A DNA stretch of 64,000 nucleotides from Amoebophrya sp. A120 (lineage: Eukaryota > Protista > Dinoflagellata), in contig CAJINV010000019.1 of NCBI GenBank assembly GCA_905178155.1, forward strand, positions 440,475 to 504,474. Direction: 5' to 3'. Positions 5,301-30,832 of the stretch are shown piece after piece (the stretch's first letter is position 1; every line of letters starts with the position of its first letter). Both the position numbers and the translations under genes were made by a program. The notes under the pieces were generated by a model. The model made no database searches. It saw only the letters and a list, made by a program, of their open reading frames with translations, and was not told where the DNA came from.

Positions 5301-6384
5301 TTAACGGTTGGCCTTGGCAACACGTTCGATCTCGTCCTTCTTCTTGATGGCGTAGCTGTTGGAGGATTCCTTGGCGCAGTTGACCAACTCGTCCGCCAAG
5401 CACTCGGCAATCGACTTGATGTTACGGAAGGCGGACAGGCGGGCTCCCGTGGTGATCAGGTGGATGGCCTCATTGACACGGCGGATCGGGGACACATCGA
5501 CGGCCTGGCGACGGACGGTACCAGAGGAACCGACCTTACAGGAGTCCTCACGCGGACCACCGTTCTTCACGGCATCGATCAAGACCTGGATGGGATTTTT
5601 AAAAGGGGATGTGGCCTTTAAATTGATTCAAAGGCGAAGTTCTCATGGACCAGACCTACAGTCTGGCAAACGCTCTCCTCAGGAACTCCTGCGGAAGATG
5701 CATGCGATGAAGGAAAACACAAACTCCTAAATCCTATACTCTCATTTCGTGCCAGCACACCTCTCAAAAGATGGCACGACTCAAACGTGGAGATACAAAT
5801 TTTTTCAAAGAAAAACTACACAGAATCATCACTCTGTAGCGAGACAGAAATTCACCAAGTTTATTCACCAGACCTAATCATCACTAAACTCCGCCCATAA
5901 TAAATACCTGGATCGGGTTCATTTCCGGGTTCAACAGGTGGATGATCTCCAGAGCCTGCTTGACGATGCGGACCGCCTTCAGCTTCTTTCCGTTGTTGCG
6001 TCCGTGCATCATCAGGGAGCAGGCCATGCGCTCGACGATCGGGCACAGAGCCTTGCGGAACCGCTTGGTCTGGTAGCGACCGGCCGTGTGCGGCACGTAG
6101 ATTCCGGAAGAGCTGGAGAAGCGGCCGGAAGAAGTCTTGATGTAATCCACGAGGGAAATCTCGGAGCCTGGAGTGATTTTTAGAAGGAGAAATTTAGAAA
6201 AAAATTTTGTCATGTCTTTGTCATGCGGAGTCGCGCATACGAAAACCTGTCTGTCATGCGAGACAACATCACGAATTGTAAACATCGTTTTAAACAAAAT
6301 TTCAGTACACATCAGGTCGGTGAACTCCCACTTTCCGAAGAGCTTGGGCTCCACGGCATTCTCGAAGGCAGCCTTGTTTTCCAT
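5301..6384 (-). CDS. RPS5: 40S ribosomal protein S5 (uS7), 3 exons
   Basis: [53 protein letters not shown] introns at 6168-6308 and 5586-5907. Confidence 0.97.
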
Positions 6385-7321
6385 TTTCTGTTGCGAAAGT
6401 CGATAGCTCTACAAGTTGTCTTTTTCACAACTTACACGTTTCCCTGTGGGTGAGTGAAAAATGATGGTAAAATATCATCGTAAAGCGAAGTCATATGTTT
6501 TTCCAAGTTAGTGCGAAAAGTTAAGAACCCGCGAATTTAGATTCTTCTTACTTTTTAGGTTTCCTTTCTCAAGATGTATTGCCACGGACTACAGAGATCC
6601 TCTTTCTCACGGTGTGAGCAGGTTTTTACATTTTAAGGATCGTTCTTTCTACAACTCACGGGACAACTTGATCGCGGATAAATTTGGAGCGCAATATTGA
6701 TCGTCTAGTGATTTTGCGATCTGTTGACAGTGCTCCTTGTGATCAAACAGGTGGATCCAAAGTTCCCTCTGAGATCTAAATCTTTTCTCATCTTCGCGCA
6801 TATGATCTTGATCACCAGCCACTCAATCGAAGCCATGCTAAGCAGCACGGGAATGAATTCTGTAGGATTTTTGCGTAGCACTACACCGCACTTCGGCTTC
6901 TTTTGCGTCGAAATCAAAGATGATAGTTACGATCACATGCACTGAATACCTGGGGTCCCGCGAACAGTACTCACAAATTGTAAACGAAACAGCACGCGCG
7001 TCCTTGCTCCAGCGCACTTTTCATCTGATCTTCATCTCCGTAGGGACAATTGCGTGACGCTGAAGGCGCCAGCGCCAATATATCGCATCTCGGAAAAATC
7101 TAAATTTGAGATCCTGAGAAGAGTTCAACAGATGAAATGGTCACTCGGGTTGTCTTTGGAAACACAGAGATAGCGCTGTGGCGAACCGACTACACCTCTT
7201 CATGGAAACGATCGAACCGTTACTACAGCTTCAAATCCTATGCGTGGAAAGAGCAGAAACCCGCTGCTCGCTCGGGAAAACAAAACATCACCACTCGAGC
7301 AAAATAAAGCGATTGAAAAGC

Positions 7322-9955: not shown

Positions 9956-12283
9956 TCATTCCGCCTCCTGGGCGGCGCTGATTTTCAGCGTTTCAAACAC
10001 ATTCTGGCACTTCTGCACCTCCCGGTACCGGTATCTCGGTGGCGTATCCACCATTTCAATCTCTTTTCGGTAAATCCTCTCCGCCCCGTCCGTTGGGAGC
10101 GTGACAATCTCCGGGATGTGCAGGGCGTGTTGTTCTTGTTCATCCACCTGCGCATGACCTACTACTACTTGCGACGGAGGTATGGCTTTTTCTTTTGCTT
10201 TGAGATCCGAGAGACCACTTGTCCCCGTCGTAGAAAATGATACCGGCGAACTTGGATTCTGACCTGCTTGTCCCGTTACCGCCGGCGTAGTGTGTTTCTT
10301 GGCGCTCATCGGTAACACCGGGGCAGCAGTCCGCTGAAAAGGCGTGAGGGGGGTAAAGCCGTGCCGGCGGCCGCTAGTGTTCATGTGCATCTGACTGTAA
10401 AACGACCCGCCGGCGCGCTGAAAAAGCAGTGGCTGTGGGTCGTTGCTCATGAATCTTTGTGGCCGAGAGGGGTTTTCGAGCGCTGCACTCGTCTCCCGCG
10501 CCGCGTCGAATTCCCCATCATCTGCAACAGCTGAACCCAATGCCAATAGCTGCGCCTTGGCCACTTCTGGAAACACGGACGTCTTCTGCTTCGGCAATGG
10601 ACGACCAGCTCTCACGACCAGCGGAGATGAAATTCTATTATTTGTGGACCCAACTGCACGGAACCGCAGGTGGATGCTGTTCGGAAACAGCTCCCGCTCC
10701 CCGACCAAATCGCCGATAAACTGACGGGGGGAGAAGAAGGCGAGGTCTTCTACTGGCTCGACGAGATCCTCCCCTTGATGTTCCCGCGGCGTGTAGAAAA
10801 CATCTTCAAGGTCGGAACCACTAGGATTTCCTGCTTTCGTCACCAGTAGATCGGTGCGTGCTACCAAAGAAAGCCTTCTCGGATCAGCAAGTTCATCCTG
10901 ACAAAGGCCGCCAGAATCAGTATGATCATCCTGATCTGCTGCTGCACTCCCGGCCGCCTCCGACGAAAACAAGAACTGACGCGCGGTACTAGTGGTTTCG
11001 GTTCTACTTGATGTTCTGTCAACCCCATTTTTAGCAGGTGCTGCTGCTACTTGTCCTCCATCGCCATTTGCATTTTCTGAAGGCGGGTGCTCGGGGCCAG
11101 TAGACTTCTGTTCGTTGCTTGTGTCGTCCCACCGGTTTTGGTCGTCGCCAAAAGCGAATCGCAGTTTTTTGTAGCCATTATTGCACACCACCATCCCGCC
11201 CGGCACTGTGCTTGCAGTTACCGGCGCCACCAGGTCCGCGAGAACATCAAGTGTGGCGCAAGAATTTTCGCTCGCAAAATAACCACTACGGCTTTCATTC
11301 GAATTTTCATCTGCAGTTGGAACAATACTAGTTCGTTCGCGATGCATTTCGTCCTGTTCCAAAGACGCACTTCTTCTCCCAGCGATATCTACTGCTTCCG
11401 ATTGGCCCTGCTGCGGAGGTCCATCGCTTCCTTGAGTCTCGTCGTGCAGATCCAGCCCGAAGGTGCTATTGCCTGCTTGTTTTGGCATCACCTGAGCCGC
11501 CTCTGGTCGTTGATCCGCCTCGGCTCTGTCCACAGAGAGCGGCCTGTCGACCACTTGTTGTACTACAACAGCCTCAATACGACCGGTGGAGCCGATTGAG
11601 TTTTCCTCTTCGTCTTCGTGAAGACCTTTTGCTTTTGTATACAGTCGCTCGGTAGGAGCTTCATCCCCCGAAGAACTACGGCGTGTGGGAATCTTTAAAG
11701 CACAAGCAGGAGACGGGCTCTCCAGCAGCAGTGTCGTTTTATTGCTGTACTCCCCGCCGCCGGGGCTGTTCGTCTTCCCGTTCTGGAGATTCTTTTTCTT
11801 CCGCCTCAACCCGAGTTCCTGCAATAGCTCTTCTCGCCAGGTTTTCGGCGACGCACGCAGCTTCTTCAACAGGACCGCATGGTGCTCTCGCTTGATCATG
11901 CCATCTTTTCCTTTCTGCTCCTCCCCGCAGCCTTGTCTTCGTGGTGTGGTTCTCGTCATTTCTGCGCGAGTTTGTTTCCTTGCTCCGCTTTTGGATAAAG
12001 ATGAAGTGGCGTTTTTAGTGTAGTCGGCAGGTGGCCCAGTTTCTTCTTGCACACGAAGTAGACCACCTCGCTGTATGTCAGTATCGTGCCGGCCTTGAAG
12101 ACAAGTCGCCCTCGACTCCTGCGCACTACGTACTGCCACTAGCGGTCTCGCAATCGTAGTTTGCCGCCAAACTGAGATGGCGGGCTTTCTCTGTGCGGCC
12201 TCGACTCGCATTTTGCAAGTTCTACCCAGGAGGTGAGTTGTCTTGCTAGATGGGCGGCTATCAAGAAGCTGCGACACAAACAA
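9956..12283 (-). CDS. Hypothetical low-complexity protein (775-aa ORF; true start uncertain)
   Basis: Long stop-free ORF on the same strand as its neighbours; no recognisable domain. Confidence 0.65.
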   Translation of the reverse strand: MFVSQLLDSRPSSKTTHLLGRTCKMRVEAAQRKPAISVWRQTTIARPLVAVRSAQESRATCLQGRHDTDIQRGGLLRVQEETGPPADYTKNATSSLSKSGARKQTRAEMTRTTPRRQGCGEEQKGKDGMIKREHHAVLLKKLRASPKTWREELLQELGLRRKKKNLQNGKTNSPGGGEYSNKTTLLLESPSPACALKIPTRRSSSGDEAPTERLYTKAKGLHEDEEENSIGSTGRIEAVVVQQVVDRPLSVDRAEADQRPEAAQVMPKQAGNSTFGLDLHDETQGSDGPPQQGQSEAVDIAGRRSASLEQDEMHRERTSIVPTADENSNESRSGYFASENSCATLDVLADLVAPVTASTVPGGMVVCNNGYKKLRFAFGDDQNRWDDTSNEQKSTGPEHPPSENANGDGGQVAAAPAKNGVDRTSSRTETTSTARQFLFSSEAAGSAAADQDDHTDSGGLCQDELADPRRLSLVARTDLLVTKAGNPSGSDLEDVFYTPREHQGEDLVEPVEDLAFFSPRQFIGDLVGERELFPNSIHLRFRAVGSTNNRISSPLVVRAGRPLPKQKTSVFPEVAKAQLLALGSAVADDGEFDAARETSAALENPSRPQRFMSNDPQPLLFQRAGGSFYSQMHMNTSGRRHGFTPLTPFQRTAAPVLPMSAKKHTTPAVTGQAGQNPSSPVSFSTTGTSGLSDLKAKEKAIPPSQVVVGHAQVDEQEQHALHIPEIVTLPTDGAERIYRKEIEMVDTPPRYRYREVQKCQNVFETLKISAAQEAE

Positions 12284-13982
12284 GTGATTATTTCACACGA
12301 TGCCACCTACCGGCAGTAACAAGAGCAGGAGTGCATCTAGCCATGCCGGTGGAGAGATAAGAAGCAAGTACTTAATACACACTTACAGACCGGGTAAGCA
12401 TCTATTTTCAAAACCTGCTGCTCTCATTCATAGGTAATTCTTTTTAGTCGACCCATAAAACGATGAAGTAAAACGGGAACTACGGCTGAAGACGTGAATT
12501 AGACGATACAACGCAGGGGCTCTGTAGTCGCATCTGCAGGCACGATAAAGGACGAACAGTCGCCGACTAGAAGGCTTCAACAAAGACAACTGACACGGAC
12601 GAAGGTCACGGAACGAGCGAAACGGCGTACCAAGCGAGAGAGAACGGCAAGAGCAAACTGCTTTGCGCACTGGCGTGGAAAGAAGATACGATGATGAAGC
12701 CGCAGCTTTCTTGCATAGCATAGAACGACAACGAGAGATGGTAGATAATACAAACAAGAACTCTAGAAGAAGTACAAGACGACGAAAACAGCAACACCAC
12801 CAACGCGCTCGCCCGAAGCAGCAACTGTGTTTGTTTCAGAATAATTTGCATGGGGAACTGGTCATGTGAAGCGACGGCATACCGGGTTGCGGAATACCAG
12901 CGTCGTCTTCATCCGTCTTTCATCGGGCTCCGATCTGAATTCTTGGGTCGTCGGGGGGACTACAGAGTACGAAATCCTTTCTTGTCATTCTCCTGCATAA
13001 GGCAGATGTAGTTCTTCGGATTCCGCTTCTGTTTCATCCTCCACACGGACTGTTTTTTCATGCAACGTGGATCAGCAAGAAGCAACGTAGGGGACAAAAA
13101 GTTCTACGTTGTCTTCAAGCGGAAGCGTGGAAATAAATGTTGCATGAAACTCACGAGCTGTTCGCGCGGTATTCTCTGTGGGAAAGGGGGGGGGTTCATA
13201 ATGTACTAGCGGGTGCGGCGGGATGTCTGAGGTTGCTCGGGAATATTATGGGGGTGAAACTACGATTACGTTTACGAAAGATATTAATCACAGAGGGAAC
13301 AAGGCACATAACAACGGTTGATTTACATTCTCCTCTTCTTTCACCTAAATGCGCGAAAAAAAATTGTTACTGTAAAAAATGTGGATCTTAGTAAGTCTTT
13401 TCAGAAAGCAGTGCATGCGAAGTCTTGTTGTAATTGTGAACGTGCTGTTGAAAAAGCAGTTGCAACTGTGAAAAAAATTTGAAAGAGAAAAAAGCCAACG
13501 TACTATATTGAAAAGTGACACTGAAAAAAATGCGAAGAGTCATAGTGCGAGTTTTCTTACGTTTGTGCGGCATGTAAAAATGCTTAACTGTACAGCTTTC
13601 GTTTGTTCGAGTTGAAAAAACTTTTTCTTTCGAAAGAAGTTATAAACGGACTAAAGCGTGAAGCTCTAGAGAGAGCAGCTAGTTTTTGTCTGTTCTGCTT
13701 TTGCTTTTTGCTTCATGCCTAAAGCATGAAGCAAAAAAATTTTGTTCTCTTCTACTTTCTTCTTTCATCCCTCTCCGACAACGACGAGCATCTCAGCGTT
13801 AGCAGCATTGAAATTCCGGGGCTCGGTATCCATGAAAAAAACTATTGCGTAGTACATGCCTCAGGTTGATGCACACGTTAGGTCAACGCTTGGACTCCTG
13901 AAACAACGTCCAGCATAGCAGTACCGATTCAGTGTCCTGCGTCATCGGAGTTGATGTTGCAAGCTGTGGTGAGCACGAGTGA

Positions 13983-14219
13983 GAACAGGAAGCGGCGCGC
14001 CGGGCGGTAATAGAGAAAATATCCGGGAAAAAGTGGGAGCAGAACGGCAGGAACGGGTCGTCGTGGCGGGTGTTAGGCGATAACAGCGCAGAAGCGATCG
14101 ACTTTGTGGCGGACAGCACCTCCTTCTGTGAGAATACGGGCAAGGAAGAATGGAAAGGAGAGGGAGCCTGGTTTGCGAAGCAGGCTGATGGGACGTGGGA
14201 GGTTGTCAGGGGAGGTTAA
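13983..14219 (+). pseudogene. 5'-truncated ORF end in cassette A (EQEAARRAVIEKISGKKW...WEVVRGG*)
   Basis: Stop-free from just after repeat 1 to TAA at 14217-14219; no start codon. Confidence 0.4.
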
Positions 14220-15125
14220 CCCCAGCGCATCTCCTACTTCCCCAGAACAAGGGAACAACACACGCACAATCCACGACTTATCGAATTTGTCTCAGAGAGT
14301 TTTATTGTAACGAGACGAGGCGCGACTACAACATTGCGACGGACGTCCACCCCGCGTATTTCGCTAACGCGGTGACGCCCCCGGTGCAGACTAACAAACT
14401 AGGACCTGAAGAAAGAATAACTGGTCTGCGCGGCCTTGTCGCTAGCGTGGACAATCTCTTGCACAAGCCCGCGCACGTCATCGCGACGTGCATTGACGAC
14501 CGGGGCCAGGCCTTCAAAGTCGACATGGCTCGGGACGTGCACGGCAGCGACAACCTGGCGCGCATGTTGGATGCGCTCAAAAAGTACGAAGAGCACATCT
14601 TCAGATCCCGCATGCGACAATATTCGTCGAAGGCAAAATTTGAAGCGATGGCTGGAAACCCATCCTGGCGCGTGAGCCAGACGCCTACCGTGGAAGGAAG
14701 AAAACACCTGGCCAGGCTCTCCGAGCTCCTGGCTCAGCATTTTGCGCCGTTCGGCAACGCGCCAACCGTCAAGCCGTCGGTAATTATGGTCGGCTACACC
14801 CTGGCAACGGATATGTCTATGTCAAACGCGCTCTGGAACTCCATCGGGGCGCGCATCGGGTGGAGTAGAATCAAAGCCGAGCTGCAAGCGTGGGCGGCTT
14901 TGCGCCGCCTAACGGGGCCGGAGCTGCGGTTGCTGATTCTCTGGAGTTTTTTATCAGCTTCTTCATATTTCATGCCGCTGTGCGCGGCAGTATGGAATGA
15001 CAGGACTTGGTCCCGTTTCTGCTTTTTTCTAGGGCACTCCATCGCCGGTCTGATCGGCCTGGGGCCGGAGGAGTACAAGGCGCTGGCGTCGGCGAAGTTG
15101 ATGTTGCTCGGCAAGGTACTGGCGC
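14195..15125 (+). pseudogene. 3'-truncated ORF in cassette A, possibly an RNA-virus (toti-like) polymerase N-terminal fragment
   Basis: About 310 stop-free, intronless codons on the strand opposite to host genes, cut off by repeat 2. Viral identity is only an impression. Confidence 0.45.
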
Positions 15126-16905
15126 TGTCCTGCGTCATCGGAGTTGATGTTGCAAGCGATGGTGCGCACGAGCGCGCACTTCTATACGAGCGCGACCTGG
15201 GTTCCACGCCAACGAGGACCGATTTTTTTGCGAGGAGCATGTACGGTCAAAGAATTCCGAGTTGATTGACATGTCAAGCCTATGATTGACCGGAAAGGAA
15301 GCATATGACTGACCGGACAAGCCCAGGGGCCGGTCATCCGGGTGACTCCCAGGCATGACGGAGTGATGAATGCTGCGGCGGGATCACAGATGAAAACGGA
15401 GGCGAAATCGACCATGCCGTGCTGTCTGAAGAGGAACACTGTGCCGGTAGGGCACCCACCGAGTGGACGTAATCCAGGACCCGGGCAGGCGACACCTGGA
15501 TAAACCCCAGAAAGCAGTACGCTTACCGTCTACATTAGCGAACTAATAGGCTCGGCGGAGGTGGCATATGGGTTGCGAAAACCCGCCGGCTGCGCAGCGG
15601 AATTCCGATGAAGAAGGAACCACAGATCAGAAAAGATAGTGATACAAAGGCCGAGTGGCCCTGGGTGCCAGTGGTGCACAAAGAGCGGCCTGCCGCGCTG
15701 CAAGAAGTAGATGCAGCTGCATCAACAAGGGCAAGGCAGAGTGAGCAAACCGATGCTAGCAACGAAAGCGATCGGTAGCGTGGAATGAAAATTGCTACAA
15801 GATGTGCCTGTGCTGTTGTGATGCTGATGCCCAAGATCGCTGCACGACAATAAGAAGTTCCTCTTCGACGCGAGGACGTTTCGCGAGGCATGAATGGGGT
15901 AGGGGGTGGTTCCTTCGGGGTCCTGTTCGGGCCCACGAGCATACCAATTCAGTGTCCTGCGTCATCGGAGTTGATGTTGCAAGCTGTGGTGAGCACGATA
16001 CTAAGTGGAATTTTCTGGGAATTGGGAAAATTGAAAAAAAATCGTCCCTCCATCGCTGCCTCACTATATCAAGAAGCACCGTTGACACACGCTGCCCCGG
16101 CCGGATCTGTTCGCGCTGCAGGGAGGGCGTCTGGATGTCCTTCCTGGGAAGGCCGCCGCCCTGTAGGCGTGTTGCACCAAGCCAATGTTATACGACTAAA
16201 AGCCCGGGCAGCATGCGGCGGGGCGTCCCAGATTTAGCCCTTGCAATGGCTAGGGGTCGCTTTTACCTAGGGGCCCCACGCCCGGCCCCTGCGCCTTCCA
16301 ATATTTCGACGAATTGCCGAAGGAGCACCCTAGCGAAGATGCCACAGCCGACCTCAACTCAGGCACTTGGTTTGCCGCCTCAGGTGCGGTTTCAGATGAT
16401 TCACACCACCAATCACGATGGCTCTGCGCGTTTTCAATTTTCCGGGAAAACTCGGGAGGGGGGGGCGGAGGGGGGGTCCGGAGGGGCCCTGAATGGGGGG
16501 GCGGTTGGGGGGCTCCAAATCGTGTCCGTGCCGTCGTGCTTCCAATTTTCCGGGAAAACTCCGAGAAGCCCCCCCCGCGGGAGGGTCTGGGACGCCCCCC
16601 CCCCGGAGGCCTCCGGCCCAGAAAGTGGGCCACTTTCCATGCGAAAAAGTGGGGTCGAATGGGGTTCTTTAGCTCGTGCTTCGAATTTTCCGGGAAAATC
16701 CAAAAGGGGGCCAAAAGGGGGCCCGGCCGTGGCCGCCTGGCGCGCTCGAAAAGGCGCGCCCGAGAGGCCGCGTCCGCTCCTGCTAGGAATTTTCCGGGAA
16801 AAAAAAAGAGGGCGCAAACGCTGGCGAGTGCTAGCACCTTGGTGGAGCCGCGCTGCTGGTGTTTTTGAATTGCTGCAGCTGTGAGCTTTGCTAAGTTGCG
16901 CGCCC

Positions 16906-17134
16906 ACAAGGGAATCACCAATAAAATCATCATGAGAAATAGGAGTTGATGTCCTGCGTCTTCGGAGTTGATGTCCTGTCCCTTGACAAGGGAATCACCA
17001 ATAAAATCATCATGAGAAATAGGAGTTGATGTCCTGCGTCTTCGGAGTTGATGTCCTGTCCCTTGACAAGGGAATCACCAATAAAATCATCATGAGAAAT
17101 AGGAGTTGATGTCCTGCGTCTTCGGAGTTGATGT
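16906..17134 (+). repeat. 80-bp tandem repeat (~2.9 copies) built partly from the array repeat
   Basis: ACAAGGGAATCACCAATAAAATC... starts at 16906, 16986 and 17066. Confidence 0.95.
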
Positions 17135-17161
17135 TGCAAGCTGTGGTGAGCACGAGCACGA

Positions 17162-17183
17162 GCCGTAGCCATTTTGGCTCAAG
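17162..17183 (+). other. Exact dinoflagellate spliced-leader sequence (DinoSL relic)
   Basis: GCCGTAGCCATTTTGGCTCAAG matches DCCGTAGCCATTTTGGCTCAAG 22/22; followed by GA, not GT. Confidence 0.93.
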
Positions 17184-18064
17184 GAGCCAACTTAGTAGAA
17201 ACCCGTCGAGAGCGGGGCCCTCTGCACGGGGCCCCTGGAGAGTATGTGTAGGCAGCCGGGTGCAGCCGGCTGCGCCCTAGATTGTAAGAAAGGGAAAAAC
17301 AAGATGTAACAGTAGGGGTTTCTCCCCCTACTGCCGGTTTGACAATATTCTGCACGACACGCTGGCGGGCAGGTTGTGCGGGGTGGGAGCGTCAGTTCGG
17401 TAACTGGATGCCCTCTTTGTGTCGCGCGCGCGGTGGCGCGCCGAGATCTGCGCGTGAACGAGGGGAGGTTGCTAGTGCGCGCAGGGCACGGATGGACGAT
17501 ACCGCTAGGCAGGTGGAGGACCTGCAGCAAACCGCATCCGGTCAGCGTATGATATGATGTCATGGGTAGCGCTCTTGATTGGTGTAGAGACAAGCTAATG
17601 CGACACTGCAAGAGAATATGTAAATTTGCATGAGCACGAACTGCTGCGCAATTGCGGAGCTTTTGCGAAGTGTAGTTGAAGGCTTTAACCCGAGGCGCGA
17701 ACGCACGGCCTTGCTCACCTCGAAGCAACCAAGATAAATTTTAGACAGAACGGCCACCAGGGCGCGTTGCTCCATTTTTCTGGATCTTTGTTTGACCTTA
17801 TGAATTGCCTAGCTCGCATGCTATGATGGCCCTGGTGACTTAAAAAGGGCACAAAAAAGGGTCCCAAAAGTGCTATTTTTCTGTTTCTTCCGTCATCGGA
17901 GTTGATGTTGCAAGCGATGGTGCGCACGAGCGCGCATCTTTAGAAGTGAATGAATATTCATCACGGTCAGGTGGCGCGCGAAAAGGCTACGATTACAAAA
18001 GTGGTAGCTACACCTCACATGCCAAGTGTGCGGCTATTGAGGAACAAGCACAAGGTGCTGCGAG

Positions 18065-21000
18065 TTAATATAAAAGTGCTGCACCGACGTGACGATCCAT
18101 ACAAAGCTGGACTACACACAGTTTTTTTTTCTTGGTTACTGCACCGAGATTCTGCTCCCCACCAGCACCAGGGCCAGGTTGTTCCCCTCCTCCTCCTCCT
18201 CCGTCGACCACTTTCGCCGCCGGTGTAAATTTTGCTTCTTTGCAAAAAAGTACGCTCAGCGTTTCGTTGCCGGCAGCGGTGGGCGCGCTGTCGTACTGGG
18301 CTTGCGTGTGAAGTTTGCATTTCTCGTCCTCCGCCGAGTACGAAAAAACCGCACACTCCGGGCGCTTTGCGCCGCAAACAGTCGCGCACGAGTCGAGGTT
18401 CACCTGGCCGTCTGGGCTTGCCGCCATGTGCTCACTCGGGCTTCTCGTATCCACTGCAAATAAGGATGTCTATTGGGTCTGTGAATAGGGAAGGATTTGG
18501 CATGCCTGGCGGGCACGTGGTCTCTTCTAGATGCATCTGTCATGCCTGCATGCCTGCTTCCGAAAAGCGCAATCCTGTTTTTTTTTTATCATGCAGCTTG
18601 TCAAACACGCCACAATTCATCACGCTTGCCGGTGTATTAATGTTGAAGTTGAAGTGACGAATTAGGATTAGCCTCATAACAACATTTTTTCAGACCCAGA
18701 GGACAAGTAATTTGCAATGAATATTTCGCCTCCACGATTTTCTCGTAGGTCACGGTGCCGGTAGCAACCTCGGTTGGCGTATGCACTGCAAATCTGTCTG
18801 GGTCTGGAAGGTTCTGAAACATGTCATGCACGTTTTGCATTAGCCATGGTGTCAGTGATGCACGCCCTAGCATCACAGATTTTTTGAGGGCTTCTTGATG
18901 CCTATTCCGCATGACAAATGCCCTCTCCACATAGCAAAAATTACACTCCCTTATTGCTGCTCATGCAATACAGATTTTTTTGGAATCCGAACGCTGCATC
19001 ACAAGTTGCCTTCTTCCAGACCCAGACATATTTGCATTTGATATGGCGCAGACGGGCACTCGGGCGTCACGGTGCTCACAACAGTATGCAGTTCAAATAC
19101 CGATCAGGACTCTCGAAGCGGATTCGAATTTATTTGAAGATCGCTGCTTGTACATAATCTAGTACAACTTCATGTAGATTTTCAACAAATCTGAAAATCG
19201 TCCCGACAAGTAGATCGGCGGAGAGGAGTGAGCAGTGAGAGAATGACTTATCCACCAACTGACGGGATCATTACTAGCGGGAACAATCTGTAGATGATGC
19301 GTCTATTTAAGTATTTATAATTTATCCCAATGGCCCTAATCTCCTATTTGCATTGCATAATCAACAGTGGTGCTTGAGGTGTCGGTTGTGTTGTTCCCAG
19401 TCGTGTTCGTCCCAGTCGTGTATCCTGATTCAAAACATCGTCCCCACCCTATTTCTCTTGTACGTTCTTCTGCTACACACAATTTATCAAGTGGAATCAA
19501 GAAGGTCAGTACGCAGAGCAAGTCTGGGTCCGCAGCGTGGCAGCGCCTCGCTCGCGCGGCCGCAGCACTACCTTGCGTCCTCGTTTTTGACTTGATTTAT
19601 TTTGGGACAACATACGACCCCTAGAAGTTGAAGTACTTCTCTGGGCAAACGACACCCCAGCTGGCCTCGTCTCGTGAGGATCTAGTACTATTCTAAGTTC
19701 CGCATGAAAGGAGCAGTAAGTTCTGGTGGGCCGCGTGACGCAATACCAACGAGAACGATGAACAACCTATACTAGGAAATAGACTGGCGGGGACGTTTAT
19801 TTCATGGGGGATACGGTTCCGTCGCTTGGCTCCGGGGTCGCAGGAGGCGCGGCCGTAGAAGTTGATATCAAATGCAAATGCGTCTGGGTCTGAAAGATTG
19901 CAGCTGTTTGTAATGCCGCTTTTGCATGCCCAAAAAAGTCTGGTATGCAAGCACTAGTGCCACAGTTCGCTCTACCTCTGCAAGAGCTGTACGATTTTAC
20001 GCCGCATGAGCATTCCGCTCGCAGCGTGGCCAAAAATTCCGGCCTTTTGCTCGTCTTCGTCATGCATGTTGACAGATCTGTATTTTTCTGTCATCGGCAG
20101 AGAGCACCACAAGTTTGCACCTTTCAAAACCCAGACAGCTGCACATTTGCAATGCATAGTTGGACAGGCCCCACAGTAGCGGCTGATGCCCTTCCAGTCC
20201 CCCGCATGGCCGACCTTTTTCGAAAGAGTCAGGCTGTTCCCGTTTGCGAAGTCGTCAGCTTCACCAGCCGCGGAGCTGTACAGGGCGCAGGAGCGCTTCC
20301 CGGCTGGATTGTTTTCCCGGGGTTCGTACTCCGCAAACCCGACACAGTTTGGCGCCCCTGTGCACAAAGCTTTGCATTCATCGTGCGCTTTGTCTGGAGC
20401 GTATTGAGGGCTGAGCAGAACCAAATCGGCGAACGCGGGACTGATTTTCACCCAGCAGTTCTGGTCTTCGCCGTCGGCCAGCAACGTCTTAAATGTCCCG
20501 CAGTCCTCAACACCTCCTGCCCCGCACTCCGGCAGCCAGACGCTGCTTTTTTCTGCGCACGTGTCCTCCGCCGCCGAACAGGTCCCGCAGTACCGACTGA
20601 TGCCCTTCCACTCGTACGGGGACGTAGCGGAGGGTACCAGTTGGAGGTCGTTCCCCGATGTGATTGCATTGTTCGCATCATTGGTCCTCAGCACGCCGCA
20701 CAGGTCCGCACCGTACTGCACGATGCCGGCGCACTCGTCGCCCAGCTCGACGCAGGCGGCCTCGCAGCCTTCGCGAGAGTGCTGGGACCATCCTGTAGCG
20801 GTCGCCGCGGGAGGCACAGTCAGTCCGCTTTGGGTCACGTCAACCATGCATTGGTTGCTCTCTCCCAGGTCACTCATATCCATGAACGTGCCGCAGTCGA
20901 CGTCGGACCCGCCGCAGCTCGGCAGCCAGCCGTTGCTGTTTGCAACGCATGGCTCGATGCACTCGTATATCGCGTCGCAGGGGGAAATGCCTCTGTCTTG

Positions 21001-21814
21001 CTGTGCTATTTGCTGGAGCTTGGCTTCGTCTGCAGCAACATTTTGGCACTTTTGATAATCAGCGGAATCTTCCATTACAGTGCACGCCTTGTAGAGCGTG
21101 CACCGGCTGTCCGCTTCATCGTCGTACTTCGAAACCCAAAAAAACTTGCACTCGCTGTCTTGATTTCATATCCTCTGCAAAAATGTCCGGATCGGGAAGA
21201 ACAGAAAATACGGGATGCTCGGCGTACGTACTTGTTAGCCAAGCGGCACGATAGACTATGCATCGACTTACCAAGTGACGACTACTTGTTAGCCGCGGCG
21301 CCGCATCCATTTCTCAACTCGAGCAACGTAGTTATATTCATGCATTGTGGAGTGGCCTCATCAAGATTGGCCCTTGGAAAAGCCACAGAACGGCAAAACA
21401 AGCTTCCCGCGTTTTCTGAAACCCGCCTGACAAATGGCAGACGACATGATCATCTTTTTTGCGTTTTATATCGCATTGCCTCCGGCACCAATTGTAACCT
21501 CCGGAGCTTCCGCGTCGCAGAAATTCCCCGTTGCCTGCGCAGCTACCCTTGCTATGCGCCAACAACCTTCCCGTTGCGCAGTGTCCTAGGGCGGCTTGAG
21601 TCCGTTGCGCGCCGGTGCGCGCCATCGTTTCCGCTCGTCTGCTTTTCTGCTGCAGCTGCAGTGCCCGCACCAAGACCCCATTCTGCTGGTTCAATATGCC
21701 ATCGAGATCCGAAACAATCACGCTCGGCTGCAGGAGGCACCCCAACCGTGCCGCAAGAACGGCGCGGCGAAAATTGCCGGCTCGCTTGCTCTTGTCGGGT
21801 GTTGCAGACAACAT
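18065..21814 (-). CDS. Cys-rich protein with PAN/apple-like modules and a Thr/Pro-rich linker, split by 6 introner introns
   Basis: CRRQC.QDSECKFF, CEAACVELGDECAG, CKALCTGAPNCVGF, CATVCGAKRPECAVFSY; duplicated WLP.CG...DCGTF and WKGISRYCG. All six excisions keep the frame. Confidence 0.75.
18448..18723. mobile_element. Introner non-canonical intron (family A-like)
   Basis: DR TCTCG/TTTCG; frame restored. Confidence 0.8.
18780..19043. mobile_element. Introner non-canonical intron (family A, TGCAAAT.TGTCTGGGTCTGGAAG TIR)
   Basis: Perfect DR TGGCG; frame restored. Confidence 0.92.
19085..19359. mobile_element. Introner non-canonical intron (degenerate)
   Basis: DR AACAG/ATCAA; frame restored. 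Confidence 0.7.
19421..19813. mobile_element. Introner non-canonical intron (TATCCT family, degenerate)
   Basis: DR TCGTG/CGGTT; frame restored. Confidence 0.7.
19866..20158. mobile_element. Introner non-canonical intron (family A)
   Basis: DR GTTGA/GTTGG; frame restored. Confidence 0.88.
21169..21470. mobile_element. Introner non-canonical intron (family A-like)
   Basis: DR TTTCA/TCGCA; joins ORFs 21338..21814 and 19972..21075 in frame. Confidence 0.78.
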
Positions 21815-23945
21815 GACAGAACCTCCGGTCTTTTGCGTGTTTCCTTACCACTGTCTACTCGCTTTCCAAAAAGCGAACAGAGAAAACAACGTACGCAGGG
21901 GTTTTTTCTACCGCTCTAATGCTGCCCCCAGCGGATTCGTTCCACACGTCTGTGGCGCGCAAGAAGTAAAGAAGTACAGCACTTCAACTTCTGCTGTCAA
22001 ATAGATCTCCCGATGAACAGTGGGAACGAAGACAAAAAAAGCTTTAAAAAAGAAGCGCGTCGCGAAGGAGATCTTCTAGTAAGTTTACATCAGTCGTCGT
22101 CGTCGTCCTTCGCTGTGGGATCTTTGCTCCTAGTGATGGCTGGTGATTATTACGTACTTCTACTTTCTGACTACGCGTGAACAAATAAGTAAATTGAGAC
22201 AACGTACGTATTTATTACGTATTTAGGGGAAGGGAAGGCACACTCCCAGTGAGGTGGAACTGGAAGTAGAGACAAACTGAGACCAGGTGGCTGAGAATGG
22301 AATAGGTGTACGACTTGCACTTTCCCGTGCGAAATGACGGATAAACTCTTCGGGCGCGAGGTAGTTGCGCTGGTCATTGAATATCTATGCGACACGACGA
22401 CGTCTGAATATTTTTCTTCAGGACGAACGACTCAGATTTCTGATTGCACGAAGGAAATGGACGCCAAGTGCGAATGAATGTTGAACGACATACGACGAGA
22501 CAGGGCGCGGACGTGCGAAACAATGCCTCTTGATCTTCTGCAACAGCATGATAAACTGTTTATTTTCTAAACGGCAAGAATGAACGAGGTTGCCACTCGT
22601 ATCTTGAACACTTTTTTTGCCAAATGGTGAATCTTGACCAAGCTACTTAAGTCATTTCTGCACGTCGTGCTGCTCCTTTTTCTTTCCGTGTCGCTTTTCA
22701 AAACTTTGGTTTGATGGCTATGGCACGACCATTTTTATTGTAGCCGGGACTCCACCACAGCTGCAGTGCCACCTGCTGTATAGCAGCAATATTGTCTCGT
22801 GACACATGATTTTCAGCGCAGCAGCTGCAACTGCACCATCCAGAGAAACTCGGCTCGCGTATCATGAGGAAAAAACCCAGTCCCCCAGACTCAATGAAAG
22901 GAAGTAGATCTGTTGATTGTATATATTTCTGCAAAATAATTTGTCCCGACAGGTCCTGCTGCGACGCTGCAATGGATTTGTGATGACAAATTTCCTCAAC
23001 ATGAAAAATAAAATTTGTACAGAACGGTACGCGCTGAGGCCCAGAATTATTTGCACTACCATCGTGATTGGGGTCAAACCTTGCGTATATACCCGGGCGC
23101 GGTGCCCTCGTGGAACGGCTTTTGTTACACTGCGAAATTATAAGGATCTCAGTAGCCTACGCGCGCCATACCATGCGGGTTGGCCCTTCAAAGTCTTCTG
23201 GTTTTTGCTTTTGTCTTTTACTCACGCCTTTCCGGAATCCCGGGATTTCCCGAATCCCGGGATTTGTCGTGAAACTGGTGAAAATCGTGCAAAAGTTGCT
23301 TTGTTTTCTATGCTAATCGCGATGGTAGGACCTCTTTTGCACGAGTTTTTGCACCGTGCAAAAAATCGCGCAAAAGCCTAACACTTGTGTCGCGAATCGC
23401 GCTACTACGGGCCCTGTTTGCGGAGTTGCTTTTTCCTGGTTTTCCGCGATATTTCGCACAAGTCGCGCAGCCGAATCACGACGGCACGGCCTTTTTTTCA
23501 CGATGTGTCTCGCCGTGACACAAATCGGAACAAGCGCTGCGGTTTTATCTCGAATCGCGATGGTACGCGCCGGCTTTCGACCGGAGTCGGTTTCCGTGGT
23601 TTGTCGGTCGCGACCGCAACGTTTGGGAATCGCGACCCGCACCGCGGCACATGTGGGCAGTGTTTCCGCTTATCGCCCGCGCGCGTGTCTACTTTTACCT
23701 TGGCTGCCCTCGCCGACGCGGGTCGGAGTCCGCACGTCCTAACAGCACGGCGCCGACTGCTCAGCGCACTGCGTGCCCTGGCACATGGTGGCGCCAGCGT
23801 CTGCAGTCAATATCTTCCCGCGCGCGTAGTGCGCGCGGCGGCGCATGCGGGCAGTATTCCCCACCGCACTGCTGGTCTTTGCCTGTCGCGCGGAATGTCT
23901 CTCGGGTTCTTGTGGTTGTCACTGTGCGCCATATACATACTGTCG

Positions 23946-24246
23946 TGGTTGGTTGTCAATACGCCAGAACGACAACTCCTTCGCGTGGCGCCAACAACGG
24001 GCGCGGGGCAAATCCAAACCCCACCCGAAACAAGACAAGCCCTGTGCGTAAAATCGTATGGCGCTGGGAATTGCGATACGCTACAAGAGCGGTGGCTACA
24101 GTTTGTGGTAGCTAGGGAGCTAAAATCCTGCATGCGTGTCCTCCACGCGGGCGGCTCCTTGTTTCGGGTGGGGTTTGGATTTGCCCCGCGCCCGTTGTTG
24201 ACGCCACGCGAAGGAGTTGTCGTTCTGGCGTATTGACAACCAACCA
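23946..24246. repeat. 89-bp near-perfect inverted repeat with 123-bp spacer
   Basis: 23946-24034 is the reverse complement of 24158-24246 with one mismatch. Confidence 0.9.
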
Positions 24247-24889
24247 AACCATCTTGACAACTGCCGTATTGGCAACCAATCACCCAGCCCGCCTTCGCAA
24301 TACAATATTGCCAACGCCCCACTCTTTCCCTTCAGCCTGCGCAACAACCCTACTGCTGGGCACGCTTTCACGCCCGTCGGCGCCGCGCGCGGGCGCCCCG
24401 CCCAGTGCGGTTGCGGCCCCCCGGGAGGACGAGCGGACCACTTCCAGAACAGTCACCAACGAGGGGACCGGCCAGCCGCCCAACAGAAGCAGGCAGCGCA
24501 GTGGTTAGGTCCGTGGTGAGGCCCGCGGGCGCAATAGCTGTGCCCAACACACACAAGCCCCGCACTGGTTAGGTCCGTGTTGAGGCCCGCGGGCACAATA
24601 GCTCCAGTTCCGCCACCCCCTCGCGATACATAGCGGACCAGCGGGCAACCCACAACACTCCCCCCCCCCCAACCACCCATGCGGGCGGGGCCCGAGAGCC
24701 GGGCGCGCCGCAAGTGGGCGGCCCCTTGCGTGCCCGCGGCGAAAAACGGGCGGAGTCGGCCAGCAAGGCAGCAACCATCCAAACGAACAGGACATCCAAA
24801 CGAGCAGGACAATGGGCCCCCACCAAACTTTCCCCTTTCAGGCAGGTAACTAAGAAGGCGGAGGCCCGTTCCGGACCTGATACGGCGGA

Positions 24890-25510
24890 AGTGGGGGCCC
24901 CCTTCGGGCGGGGGCGGCAGGGAGGCGGAGCCCCCGTGTGGGCAAGAAGGGCCGCGGGGGCCCCCCGCGGGAGGGCAGGAGACCGCTTTTGGCCGGCAGC
25001 CCGCAGGAGGCGGGGGGGCCTCCTGCGCGCAAGCAAGGAGGCGGGGGCCCCCCTGCACGAGCGGTACCCAGCGGCCGGAAGGGCGGGAGCCGGGGGGCCC
25101 CCCTGCAGGCGGGCCCCCAACGGGCGAAAGGGTGTGAGGGGGGACGGGCAAGGGGGCGTCGGCCCCCTGCGCGTGAGCGGTGAAAGAAGGAAGCGGGGGC
25201 CCCCTGTAGGCAGGATACCCCCTGCGGGCGGGAGCCGGGGACGGGGGCCCCCCTGCAGGGGCGCGGGAAGTGAAAGAAGGAGGCATGGGCCCCCCTGCAG
25301 GCGCGGTACCAGCGGTCGGCGCCCCGCGATGCCCAGCTGGCGAAAGGTTGTGTGGGGGGGCGATCAAGGAGGCGGGGGCCCCCTGTAAGTGGGCAGTGAA
25401 AGACGGAGGCGGGGCCCCCCTGCGGGCGGGAGGGCGGGAGTCGGGGACGGGGGCCCCCTTGTGGGGAGGCTACCGAGCGGGCGAGAGGCGGGAGGGCGGG
25501 GGCCCCCTGT
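24890..25510. repeat. G-rich degenerate satellite (GGGGGCCCCCC motifs)
   Basis: More than ten GGGG(G)CCCC(C) palindromes at irregular spacing. Confidence 0.7.
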
Positions 25511-25997
25511 TTTCCCCGAGGGTATGCTCGACGCTAAAAATATAACCTTCACCGTGCCGTCGTGTTTCAAAGTCTGGGCCTCAGCACGTACCGGTCTCAA
25601 TTTGTAATGCGGATTTGCCTTCAGATAAAGATTTGTAATGCATGACTGCAATGTCAGTACTCACTCTGGGGTTCTTGGATTTTTCAAATCTCGATATCGC
25701 AAGCTCGCGTCGGTTTCGAAGAGCCCGGTGTAAAAACTGGTTGACGTGCGGCACCCTATCAAAGTGAAAACCCAACGAAATAAAACCTTCTTGTACTTCT
25801 TTGAATTTGATTTTATCAATTTTGACTCCTCATTTCTGTTGTGGTAGTAAGTTCTGCACTACGTTCGTTCAATACCTGTTGTTTCGCAACAAAGCAGCGC
25901 GGGTCGAAGGAGGGGAAGTTGCATTCGATTTCCTAATCCTAGTTCGGAATCGACATGACCATGAGACGGGCTTTTTGCACGGAGGTTCTCAACTTTG

Positions 25998-29399: not shown

Positions 29400-30832
29400 T
29401 GGTAACCAAATGCGTGCGCGAAAATCTAACCAGCGCGAAAGGCAAACCAGCCGCGCGGCGAAAGCGCGGCCCTGCGGGCCGCGCTTTCGCCGCGCGGCTG
29501 CCACCACCATTTCTTCTTCTTCTTCTAATCTAGAATCCCACTTCTTCTTCTTGAGCCGCGGGCCGCAGTTTGCGGTCGCGGCCCTAAAGGGCCGCGAGCA
29601 CAAAGGGCCGCGGACAACTACTGTCGCCCGCGGCGGCCCGCAGGCTCCTGCGATAAGCTTTGAAGGCGAAATCCGGTCTGCTATTTCGCAGCGGGGCATC
29701 CTTTCTAGCCCCCTGCATGACAAACTGGCCTCCTGGCCAAGAAGGTATGCGGAAAGCCGAATCTCCGCGGACCCTTCCGGGCCACCAAAATCGGGCATTT
29801 CAGACGCGGCGGAGGTGCAGGATTTGTGCCCACAAACCAGGGCAAATAGGGATTTTGTGACATCCCTCCGCCCGCTTCTAATGCGTTTTTTTTTTCACAA
29901 TCCCGATGGTATGGCGCGACCACGCGCCCGCCGGACCGCCCTTGGCGGCCAGTTTGTAAGCCTGCCGAGGGTTCTCGGTTTTTTTCAATTTTCGCTCTTT
30001 TTTGTGGTTCTTAGGTGGCCGAAGGGCTCCGGACATTTTCACCGACCGCAGCTGCCTGGCAGTTTCGGAGCCTGCGGAGGGATTGCGCTTTTGCGCATTT
30101 TTTTCTCTTTTTCTGGTTTCCAAGTGGCCCGGGCGACCTGGACATTTTTACCGCCCGCATCTCCCTGGCAGTTTTGAAGCCTGCGGAGGGATTGCGCTTT
30201 TGCGCAATTTTTCATCTTTTTTCATTTTCCAAGTGGCCCCAGCGACCTGCACATTTTTACCGCCCGCATCTGCCTGGCAGTTTTGAAGCCTGCGGAAGGG
30301 TTGCGCTTTTGCGCAATTTCTCATCTTTTCTCATTTTCCAAGTGGCCCGGGTGATCTGGACAAAATCCGACGATTGCTTCCGCCCACGTTATGAAGCAAA
30401 TTTTTGCCATTTTTTTCCAACTTTTTCCAGTTACGAAGCGGCCCAAGGCTTCCGGACAGGTCGCGGGCCTGCTTCTCCAACGCAGCTGCCCAGCGGGCGG
30501 AGCAAAAAACAGTCCGTCTCTTTTTCAGCTATCAAGTGGGCCAAACCGCAAAAATGCTCTTTTTTCACCTTCTCCCGCTTGGTTTCTGCCGTTTTTGCGA
30601 CATTTTTGCCCTCCTGGACATTTTCCTATCTGGTCCGCTTTTTTTCCCTTCTCCCGCTTCATTTCTGGCCATTTCCCTGACCTTCACGCCTCCCGGCGGT
30701 TGCCCTATATGGTAACGGCAACTGCCTTCGCGCTGCGTTTGCTAAGCAATATCGCAAGCGCGCAGAGCGCGCGCGCCGGCTTCGTGGGCCGGCGCGCGCT
30801 CTGCGCGCGCGCGCGCACGCATTTGGTTACCA
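29400..30832. mobile_element. Non-autonomous DNA transposon with 21-bp TIRs and internal 109-bp tandem repeat
   Basis: TGGTAACCAAATGCGTGCGCG at 29400-29420 with perfect inverse at 30812-30832; ~3 units starting 30032, 30141 and 30250. Confidence 0.8.

Follow-up and report, generated by a model that had tools for sequence, protein, structure and literature searches.

A repeat-punctuated array of unrelated cassettes in Amoebophrya sp. A120, possibly formed by serial LINE-type insertion

Organization of the repeat array

The window analyzed here, a 64,000-nucleotide stretch of Amoebophrya sp. A120 DNA, contains five co-oriented copies of a 46-bp repeat with four unrelated cassettes, A to D, between them (Table 1). 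The array sits amid minus-strand genes and gene orientation is unbroken across the block; the long flanking ORFs thus run opposite to cassettes A and D, in agreement with the preliminary description of this locus. The cassettes are also mutually unrelated by blastn and tblastx, as had been proposed, except for one 15-bp motif that recurs in cassette C and is found once (13/15) near the start of cassette A. No terminal inverted repeats are present on the block and no outer duplication of at least 4 bp is found at its ends, the longest word common to the flanks being six bases and non-terminal. Other G+C-rich repeat inserts are also present in the window.

Table 1. Coordinates and strands of the features in and around the array (positions in the window)
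Feature	Position	Strand	Remarks
Left flanking host ORF	9956..12292	-	778 aa, without Pfam family
Repeat copy 1	13922..13978	+	Long 5' form (11 extra bases), alpha allele
Cassette A	13979..15125	+	Internal fragment of divergent LINE-like ORF2, without poly(A)
Degenerate repeat-like stretch, end of A	15080..15125	+	28/46, exact tandem register with copy 2; joint best non-copy score
Repeat copy 2	15126..15178	+	Beta allele with short 5' form; TG-to-CA length 53 bp; shares 46 identical bp with copy 5
Cassette B	15179..15941	+	Without protein or RNA family match
Repeat copy 3	15942..15998	+	Alpha allele with long 5' form; 56/57 bases as in copy 1
Cassette C	15999..16905	+	G+C-rich, four copies of 15-bp motif
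Exact 80-bp tandem, 2.9 copies	16906..17134	+	100% identical; partial repeat copies, 7-bp fold-back at junction; continues into copy 4
Repeat copy 4	17110..17155	+	Short 5' form, alpha allele; private A-to-T change common to 80-bp tandem
Second copy of last 6-8 repeat bases	17154..17161	+	Matches 15991-15998; 6-bp duplication 17156-17161
Cassette D	17162..17890	+	Non-coding, structured
Spliced leader, dinoflagellate-type, 22 nt	17162..17183	+	Starts at first base of cassette D
Repeat copy 5	17891..17936	+	Shortest 5' form, beta allele plus 7 shared bases
Right flanking host gene pieces	18065..21165	-	PAN domains; last ORF ends ~130 bp from copy 5

An ungapped scan with the 46-mer (both strands, 127,910 positions) scored the five copies at 42-46/46, the next three matches at 28/46 and the background of the window at 26/46 at most, which bears out the described layout of five repeats separating four cassettes. 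That the repeat is absent elsewhere in the window holds for full copies; the three 28/46 matches are two partial copies within the 80-bp tandem and the degenerate copy at 15080-15125. All five copies carry the 3' end reported as fairly fixed, GCACGA, which terminates at 13978, 15171, 15998, 17155 and 17929. Their 5' ends are not simply ragged, as was thought, and come in paired forms: copies 1 and 3 share 11 additional bases, copies 2 and 4 have the same start base (TG), and copy 5 begins seven bases later, with 8 of the 12 bases directly upstream matching the repeat too.

Two alleles can be distinguished, alpha (copies 1, 3 and 4) and beta (copies 2 and 5), the latter with seven further common bases. 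The 5' and 3' states are coupled in a pattern that is permitted by 4 of 100 arrangements, a post hoc figure based on five copies. TG and CA delimit both ends of copy 2 only, TG being present in copies 1, 3 and 4 and CA in copy 5; an exact TG start occurs at two independent junctions and an exact CA end at two, for which the expected dinucleotide-frequency product is 0.005 (post hoc). The core dyad is weak (7/10, equalled by 79 of 2000 shuffles), folding of the repeat is no better than that of shuffles (z -1.9 to +1.5, seven folds) and the repeat matches no Rfam family.

Pfam searches covering 17 ORFs plus 24 cassette frames revealed no recombinase and, in these frames, no protein family match for cassettes B to D. 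Given spacers of 730-1150 bp and no Cas family among the 17 scanned ORFs (Pfam), a CRISPR array is rejected. An Rfam scan of positions 12500-19500, which divergent Amoebophrya RNAs may escape, gave nothing above noise and no ribozyme at the array, and no tRNA was found there. Poly(A) is absent before the repeats, the longest A run in the last 100 bases being 2-7 and never terminal.

Contents of the cassettes

Cassette A has an open frame from 14189 onward and shows homology to its relatives over 14324-15094; its 5' 350 bp have no assignment. Nine homologous proteins were retrieved among 1.84 billion (E 3.5e-27 to 4.6e-5), eight of which are named Amoebophrya. The profile homology covers positions 950-1202 of 1739, and the coding fragment cut at both ends that had been noted here can be specified as an internal piece of a LINE-like ORF2. 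No other part of the element is present in the window, and a collinear six-residue match of the 5' part of A to positions 860-869 of relative P0003 does not reach significance (equalled in 127 of 500 shuffles).

The relatives, 1,400-1,740 aa in length, combine a putatively APE-like N-terminus with a region of predicted LINE-1/R2 RT-like fold, and cassette A carries Cys-Ile-Asp-Asp at the RT catalytic position (14489-14500). In a Foldseek search with a model of the corresponding region of L001, a full-length relative, ten of the 11 highest rows were LINE-1 or R2 RT (best probability 0.98, E 5.6e-3), the models being of low confidence (mean pLDDT 57.7) and no row reaching E ≤ 0.001; with VIA, the top four rows for this region were LINE-1/R2 RT (Z 7.7-8.8, rmsd 4.2-5.4, 243-305 aligned). 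Cassette A aligns to the modelled RT region of the relative, with the Asp-Asp pair kept. The Pfam family RVT_1 found no match in the relatives, a PDB sequence search gave none, and cassette A folded alone yielded no RT match. Exo_endo_phos_2, the endonuclease-RT Pfam family, scored on the N-termini of P0003 (E 0.017) and L001 (E 0.091), in both cases below the curated cut-off. Based on the modelled RT domain, we assign the source family of cassette A, with moderate confidence, to the ORF2 of non-LTR retrotransposons (LINEs). Independently of how the array arose, this LINE-like family is too divergent for the Pfam RT model, and its members carry no annotation beyond that of unnamed proteins.

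The earlier view that neither RT nor integrase is encoded at the locus is thus to be amended for the RT, of which A is a LINE-like fragment, and stands for recombinases within the 17 ORFs. As cassette A is without endonuclease and N-terminal RT motifs, it cannot be the active enzyme; its reading as an autonomous element is rejected, the profile homology being confined to 14324-15094. L001, the sole full-length relative with DNA, is 33% identical at the protein level and lies outside any array. Its 3' region resembles the repeat no better than shuffles do (66-96 of 300 reach the score); against the repeat plus 30 bases of cassette D, 1 of 300 shuffles did so, yet the opposite strand came close (34 vs 36). 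No full-length element ending in the array repeat was found.

Cassette B is probably an older spacer of a repeat-B-repeat scaffold. Cassette C has a 13-mer in common with two sites in inverted arrangement (23477-23489 and 25552-25564), so that it probably represents part of a host repeat family. The private change of copy 4 also occurs in the tandem at the end of C, suggesting that copy 4 arrived with C. An 8-mer (15991-15998 and 17154-17161) flanks the unit of C plus copy 4, the sole flanking duplication among 10 candidate units, and is a candidate target-site duplication, although slippage at the 5' junction of D could have produced it instead. At the A and D units, a target-site duplication would be merged with the tail. 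The cassettes had been described as intron-free. This does not speak for a cDNA origin, as LINE ORFs lack introns in any case and B to D have no protein family match.

Cassette D starts, as first reported, at the first base of a sequence recognizable from the DinoSL consensus as a spliced leader, the only full 22-nt leader in the window. Behind the leader come GA in place of GT and an inverted copy, 7 bp long, of the leader's 3' part. The junction closes a 7-bp hairpin, which 42 of 20,000 random downstream sequences also do. A chain of four perfect hairpins (17174-17190, 17214-17235, 17252-17273 and 17310-17333) was matched by none of 1000 shuffles, and loops 2 and 3 are complementary over six bases; no Rfam family was found for the cassette. 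This hairpin chain, the 80-bp tandem, the 6-bp duplication and the degenerate copy were absent from the preliminary description. GA donors are known in dinoflagellate introns (PMC7789003) and SL RNA transcripts of ~56-83 nt have been described (PMC3101222). Within 100 bases 3' of the exon no T tract is found, and cassette D is rejected as a short SL RNA gene with a T-tract end, for which a leader-headed structured RNA could be mistaken.

Origin of the array

The array is most likely a by-product of retrotransposition. More specifically, we give an even chance to its being a stack of separate, self-targeting insertions of LINE type, each of an unrelated, repeat-tailed RNA, a model built on one locus and five repeat copies. 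The ancestral locus would have read target-B-target, with a target of 64 bp made up of 11 additional bases on the 5' side, the alpha 46-mer and seven additional bases on the 3' side; copy 1 presumably represents the left part of this form at the first native site. A trans-acting APE-RT LINE, of the same family as the source of A, would nick at the hexamer ending the 46-mer, after which the repeat tail of an RNA would pair with the nicked strand and prime reverse transcription, the repeat itself serving as tail in place of poly(A). In this way A (beta tail) would have entered the first target, and D (beta tail) followed by C (variant alpha tail) the second, each bringing its own terminal repeat copy, placed at the 3' end of the resident repeat. 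The cargo would consist of a LINE RNA cut internally, a transcript of a host repeat and a structured RNA headed by the leader, travelling as SINE-like passengers. Because every insertion would leave a fresh repeat copy, the site would be regenerated and the array would grow in an R1-like manner with mixed cargo. The allele coupling, permitted by 4 of 100 arrangements (post hoc), fits a scaffold with three inserts, and both A (28/46) and D (8/12) are repeat-like at their inner ends. Serial insertion does not explain the degenerate copy beside copy 2 or the TG..CA ends.

The coupling fits equally well if beta is native and alpha was carried on repeat-flanked circles that re-entered the repeats by crossover in a 25-32-bp core, in the manner of integron stacking. 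Such circles would be DNA, or circular cDNA of a tyrosine-recombinase retroelement, and their products attL/attR-like chimeras with the long 5' form and alpha on the left and the short 5' form and beta on the right; owing to this resemblance, the att-like recombinase version offered in the preliminary description survives. The A and D units without flanking duplication and the imperfect core dyad are in line with it as well. Nevertheless, we judge crossover rather unlikely, as the 17 scanned ORFs contain no recombinase, the identifiable cargo is a LINE RT, and the hexamer at 17156-17161 together with the exact start of D at the leader require an RT step regardless. The RT origin initially suggested is strengthened by the LINE RT fragment in A, the leader start of D and the duplication around C. 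In its original form, however, an adaptor RNA alternates with unrelated RNAs in a single run of template jumping and the concatemer is inserted at once. This fits less well than serial insertion because it does not predict the coupled repeat states and because the block as a whole has no flanking duplication, unlike the 14-bp repeats of a fungal chimera. The leader of D does adjoin the 3' end of the repeat with a short duplication, as a jump from the 5' end of one RNA to the 3' end of another predicts, and double jumps by a LINE RT have been described; yet approximately eight jumps would be required versus the two documented in that report (PMC2104539). We consider a single run very improbable.

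The TG and CA junctions invite a reading of the repeat as a 53-bp mini-LTR, the array then being an LTR-sharing tandem of a TRIM-like non-autonomous element whose internal regions were swapped for captured RNAs; tandem arrays of TRIM and Cassandra elements do exist (PMC7215508). We hold the chance of this to be equally slim. No TGG primer-site start lies within six bases of any of the five copies on either strand, no purine tract adjoins, no LTR-bounded unit shows a 4-6-bp duplication, no relationship links the internal regions and the CA end is missing from the alpha copies. Wholesale copying of an ordinary composite transposon to many loci, or misassembly of this region, would accommodate the perfect identity of the 80-bp tandem and the further G+C-rich repeat inserts in the window. 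Against these stand the missing terminal inverted repeats and outer duplication, linked allele differences that are hard to obtain by collapse or chimera, and the continuous gene orientation, leaving them improbable.

The proposal of a viral-RNA archive or defence locus found no support, as no cassette matched the phage, plasmid and viral-contig collections and the identifiable cargo is transposon-like. A wider and, in our estimation, unlikely reading is that of a eukaryotic RT-driven cassette array, in which a divergent LINE logs unrelated RNAs at a self-regenerating 46-bp site across many arrays that exchange cassettes, and antisense read-through from the host gene block silences matching elements. 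The logged RNAs would then be the message of the LINE itself, repeats of the host and, as a new kind of SINE, a structured RNA headed by the spliced leader. If the model of serial LINE-type insertion is right, LINE passengers would be selected and placed by pairing with a common 46-base end, not by poly(A), so that one site could gather unrelated RNA copies in order. This would constitute a natural, repeatable route of site-directed insertion and a testable origin of transposon-trap loci in a lineage in which retroposition is reported to be rare (PMC6482013).

Relation to known systems

Serial insertion at a regenerated site recalls the R1 elements of Drosophila 28S rDNA, site-specific non-LTR elements of APE type. 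R1 arrays are extended when a new copy inserts into the duplication that a previous one has left, and the target sequence carried by R1 RNAs anneals to the site (PMC2718515). Both systems have head-to-tail, co-oriented inserts with a short separator and variation concentrated at the 5' junction of the insert; re-targeting of the separator and annealing of RNA ends to the target would likewise be common to both. In R1 arrays, however, a single element is stacked repeatedly at an rRNA duplication of 14 bp (PMC2718515), whereas the present inserts are unrelated and their 46-57-bp separators carry donor-linked alleles. Unrelated RNAs, including a LINE fragment and non-coding RNA, are likewise joined in LINE template-switch chimeras such as WEIRD/Mg-SINE/MGL of Magnaporthe (PMC2104539) and U6-L1 (PMC4476161); these are described as two or three directly fused parts with an outer duplication, in contrast to four repeat-punctuated parts without one.

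Small passengers carried by an APE-RT LINE are known from trans-splicing protists in the form of RIME, NARTc and SIDER, partners of the INGI clade that have poly(A) tails and a common 5' signature (PMC12278014); the array cassettes lack poly(A). CRE, SLACS and CZAR provide a comparable link between retroelements and the spliced leader, but the endonuclease of CRE elements is of the RLE type and their insertion site is the SL gene (PMC12278014), while here the leader heads cassette D. Terminons of bdelloid rotifers share the head-to-tail arrays, the punctuation by a 3'-terminal motif and the captured host sequence in between; they differ in having a Penelope-type RT, a hammerhead motif and a telomeric location (PMC6431247), as opposed to a LINE-like RT, no Rfam ribozyme and an intergenic site. 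As in dinoflagellate relict-leader retrogenes (PMC7789003, PMC3101222), a DNA copy of the leader heads a reinserted sequence, but cassette D, unlike those retrogenes, is a structured non-coding sequence that pairs with the leader at its start.

Repeat copies and a proposed insertion history

In an ungapped scan with the 46-mer across 127,910 positions, the five co-oriented repeat copies of the block score 42-46 matches, against at most 26 elsewhere in the window, in line with the array reported in the preliminary description. Its claim that the repeat is confined to these copies stands for the sequence outside the block; inside it, the next score (28) belongs to two partial copies within an exact 80-bp tandem and to a degenerate stretch. 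The four cassettes between the copies (A-D) are, as described initially, mutually unrelated by blastn and tblastx, except for one 15-bp motif with four occurrences in C and a single one, carrying two mismatches, close to where A starts.

At their 5' ends, copies 1 and 3 have 11 extra bases in common, copies 2 and 4 begin at the same TG, and copy 5 begins 7 bases later. Three linked positions separate an allele alpha (copies 1, 3 and 4) from an allele beta (copies 2 and 5), and the beta copies share 7 further bases ending in CA. After each alpha copy comes a cassette with a short copy at its end (A, C, D), after each beta copy either B or the right flank; this coupling is satisfied by 4 of 100 arrangements in a post hoc test. 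Given this coupling of alleles and 5' ends, the simplest reading of the sequence would be an older scaffold, target-B-target with targets of 64 bp, that received three inserts carrying their own repeat tails. Consistent with three inserts, a change private to copy 4 recurs in the tandem that closes C, and an extra hexamer yields an 8-mer duplicated on both sides of the unit formed by C and copy 4, the sole such case among 10 candidate units.

Coordinates of features in the window and in L001, the DNA locus of one full-length relative of cassette A
Feature	Coordinates	Remark
Repeat copies 1-5, ends	13978, 15171, 15998, 17155, 17929	same orientation
Cassettes A, B, C, D	13979-15125, 15179-15941, 15999-16905, 17162-17890	plus strand
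Left-flank hairpin	13705-13737	perfect, 14 bp
78-aa open frame	13983-14219	start of A
Nine-protein profile match	14324-15094	only match in window
Degenerate repeat stretch	15080-15125	28 matches
Box C-like and box D-like motifs	15359-15430	in B, 72 bases apart
Tetraloop hairpin	15905-15941	end of B, small
Extra hexamer	17156-17161	
G+C-rich inserts	23100-25570, 29400-30820, 57834-58177	repeat arrays inside, with periods of 109 and 170 bp
Inverted pair with 13-mer of C	23.5-25.6 kb	flanks G+C-rich insert
GTP cyclohydrolase I gene	26812-27771	minus strand, host gene
Aspartyl protease gene	36908-37612	minus strand, host gene
~260-bp TIR family	18780-19044, 32398-32662, 34089-34311, 35944-36196, 40420-40683, 42414-42677	window
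Second ~260-bp family	626-932, 43959-44219	window
Second ~260-bp family	L001:3466-3749, 6239-6511	
LINE-like locus	L001:7887-13103 (JACKZZ010003054.1)	full 1,738-aa ORF, no array there

Cassette A and its LINE-like relatives

Cassette A found nothing in Pfam or by word-indexed search. HMMER, run in full over 1.84 billion representatives, returned 9 matches (E 3.5e-27 to 4.6e-5), the longest of 1,430-1,738 aa; members of this family (P0002-P0010) are annotated solely as unnamed proteins, mostly of Amoebophrya. A profile of the nine proteins maps to a single stretch of the window, within A, and the relatives run several hundred residues past the end of A. An Asp-Asp pair kept by A is conserved in all aligned rows covering that position. 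One relative, P0004, is a predicted fusion to a SNARE-domain exon.

The matching region of the L001 protein (671 aa) was modelled with a mean pLDDT of 57.7. With this model, 10 of the top 11 Foldseek rows are LINE-1 ORF2p or R2 and the remaining one is telomerase (best probability 0.98, E 5.6e-3; no row at E ≤ 0.001). The top 4 rows of VIA are likewise LINE-1 ORF2p or R2, with Z of 8.8, 8.1, 7.7 and 7.7, values under 8 being common according to the tool's own warning. The N-termini of the relatives give sub-threshold endonuclease-RT Pfam matches. The family matches neither Pfam RVT_1 nor PDB sequences; A folded alone yields no RT match, with telomerase at rank 35 (E 1.7), and an Atlas search with A gave only matches under 0.9. 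Word-indexed search with the RT region recovered P0002 and P0003 only, and a three-protein alignment found no relatives among 142 candidate stretches of viral contigs and 1 locus among 274 from metagenomes. We take the source family of A to be a very divergent APE-RT LINE.

The preliminary description held that no RT is encoded here. A does appear to be a fragment of a predicted LINE ORF; judging from its sequence, it cannot be an active enzyme, since the endonuclease and the upstream RT motifs are missing. The 78-aa open frame at its start has a natural-looking composition and is without matches by word-indexed search; its strongest local alignment with P0003 lies immediately upstream of the region of homology and is not significant.

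Cassettes B, C and D

None of 24 reading frames from B, C, D and the 5' part of A reached the Pfam cut-off, and Rfam gave only sub-threshold matches on the block region, D and B, naming no family for D. As first described, D begins at base 1 of a spliced leader, the sole full one in the window; by its consensus, this 22-nt leader is of the dinoflagellate type. The first 184 bases of D hold four perfect hairpins (shuffle mean 0.08; four reached in 0 of 1000), a density of at least four found in one 200-base segment in D and six elsewhere across the 64 kb. Folding of the first 399 bases gives z of -2.4 (plus) and -3.8 (minus), and loops 2 and 3 show six-base complementarity. The leader pairs with the next seven bases, as happens in 42 of 20,000 random downstream sequences. 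Such self-pairing makes an ordinary trans-spliced mRNA unlikely, and suggests either an RNA that folds its leader into its structure or synthesis by fold-back during insertion. D could also be an SL RNA gene: PMC7789003 reports that each genome has one complete leader-like copy and that dinoflagellate introns can have GA donors. Against this, the donor of D is GA and no T tract follows the leader, SL RNAs being described as about 56-83 nt with T-tract ends (PMC3101222).

An exact 13-mer of C recurs as an inverted pair on either side of a G+C-rich insert (3 matches against 0.15 expected), so C is likely, by sequence, to be part of a host repeat family. In B, the box C/D-like stretch scored E 0.14 with Rfam snoR35, far under the gathering score. 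The end of B has the small tetraloop hairpin and a stretch that resembles a tRNA 3' end, but neither ARAGORN nor Rfam called a tRNA.

Setting of the block and its proposed assembly

No cassette has a poly(A) terminus, and the inner ends of A and D resemble the repeat (28/46 and 8/12), which may mean that tail joining was guided by base pairing with the repeat. The anatomy of the block is observed; we infer that an enzyme nicked the site, that RNA intermediates took part and how the events were ordered, the evidence being this single locus plus relatives. We give about even chances to a model in which a LINE of A's family, acting in trans, built the block by serial target-primed reverse transcription, with priming through base pairing and with the site regenerated each time. 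The three inserts would have split the 64-bp target at its terminal hexamer, each bringing its own repeat tail; this tail of the RNA would pair with the nicked genomic copy and prime reverse transcription, and every insertion would renew the site. The left flank could be an additional cassette ending in copy 1. An element with this repeat at its end was not found, the weak point of the model; the match of the L001 3' region is no better than shuffles. Exact searches with the repeat core were negative in viral and metagenome contigs.

Crossover of repeat-bearing circles, the main rival, would yield the same allele coupling, but the dyad in the repeat core is weak and we consider this rival unlikely. 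The exact boundaries point to a 53-bp unit compatible with a TG..CA mini-LTR, which, lacking primer site, purine tract and duplication, seems very improbable. We hold equally strong doubts about template jumping in one pass: about eight jumps would be required and the outer duplication is absent, whereas the precedent, in PMC2104539, comprises two jumps with outer duplication. An ordinary composite or a misassembly is quite unlikely.

R1 tandem arrays are the closest precedent: according to PMC2718515, they grow through insertion into the duplication left by the previous copy, and R1 RNAs bear target sequence annealing to the site. With LINE passengers (PMC12278014), relict leaders and Terminon arrays with captured sequence (PMC6431247), each separate ingredient has precedent. 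Searches of open-literature listings turned up nothing on an array of this kind, on this LINE family or on a SINE derived from a leader, nor anything that combines the ingredients by stacking unrelated cargo, free of poly(A), at a single site that is regenerated.

The viral cargo proposed initially found no backing, as searches with the cassettes were negative in viral contigs, phages and plasmids, and the block as a whole gave no blastn match to phages and plasmids. The antisense orientation of A and D relative to the flanking genes holds, so read-through of the block would give antisense RNA against the LINE. Nothing in this analysis shows a defence role, and it is rather unlikely that RT-driven cassette arrays form a system across the genome that serves in silencing.

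Several differences between repeat copies are synonymous in one frame, yet five differences are too few to argue for coding, and on inspection of the alignment the peptide is absent from all relatives. Interpreting the repeat or D as a hammerhead, an SRP-like RNA or a telomerase RNA, on motifs judged by eye, lacks Rfam support. The final 7 bases of the repeat, which we took to resemble the end of a cDNA-cloning adaptor, lie within the naturally varying 46-mer, and this origin was rejected.

The window is from an Amoebophrya-like dinoflagellate: its long ORFs lie mostly on one strand and Amoebophrya is the named source of 8 of the 9 relatives of A. The block sits between minus-strand genes, and a PAN-domain ORF ends ~130 bp away from it; the left flank of the block is A+T-rich, with a hairpin at z about -4.9. 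The window also carries families of ~260-bp inverted-repeat elements. Those of the first, with terminal inverted repeats, are MITE or introner-like and 66-88% identical to one another; the second has copies in L001 as well as in the window, with identity of up to 80% between the two, and one of its L001 copies sits between two ORFs.
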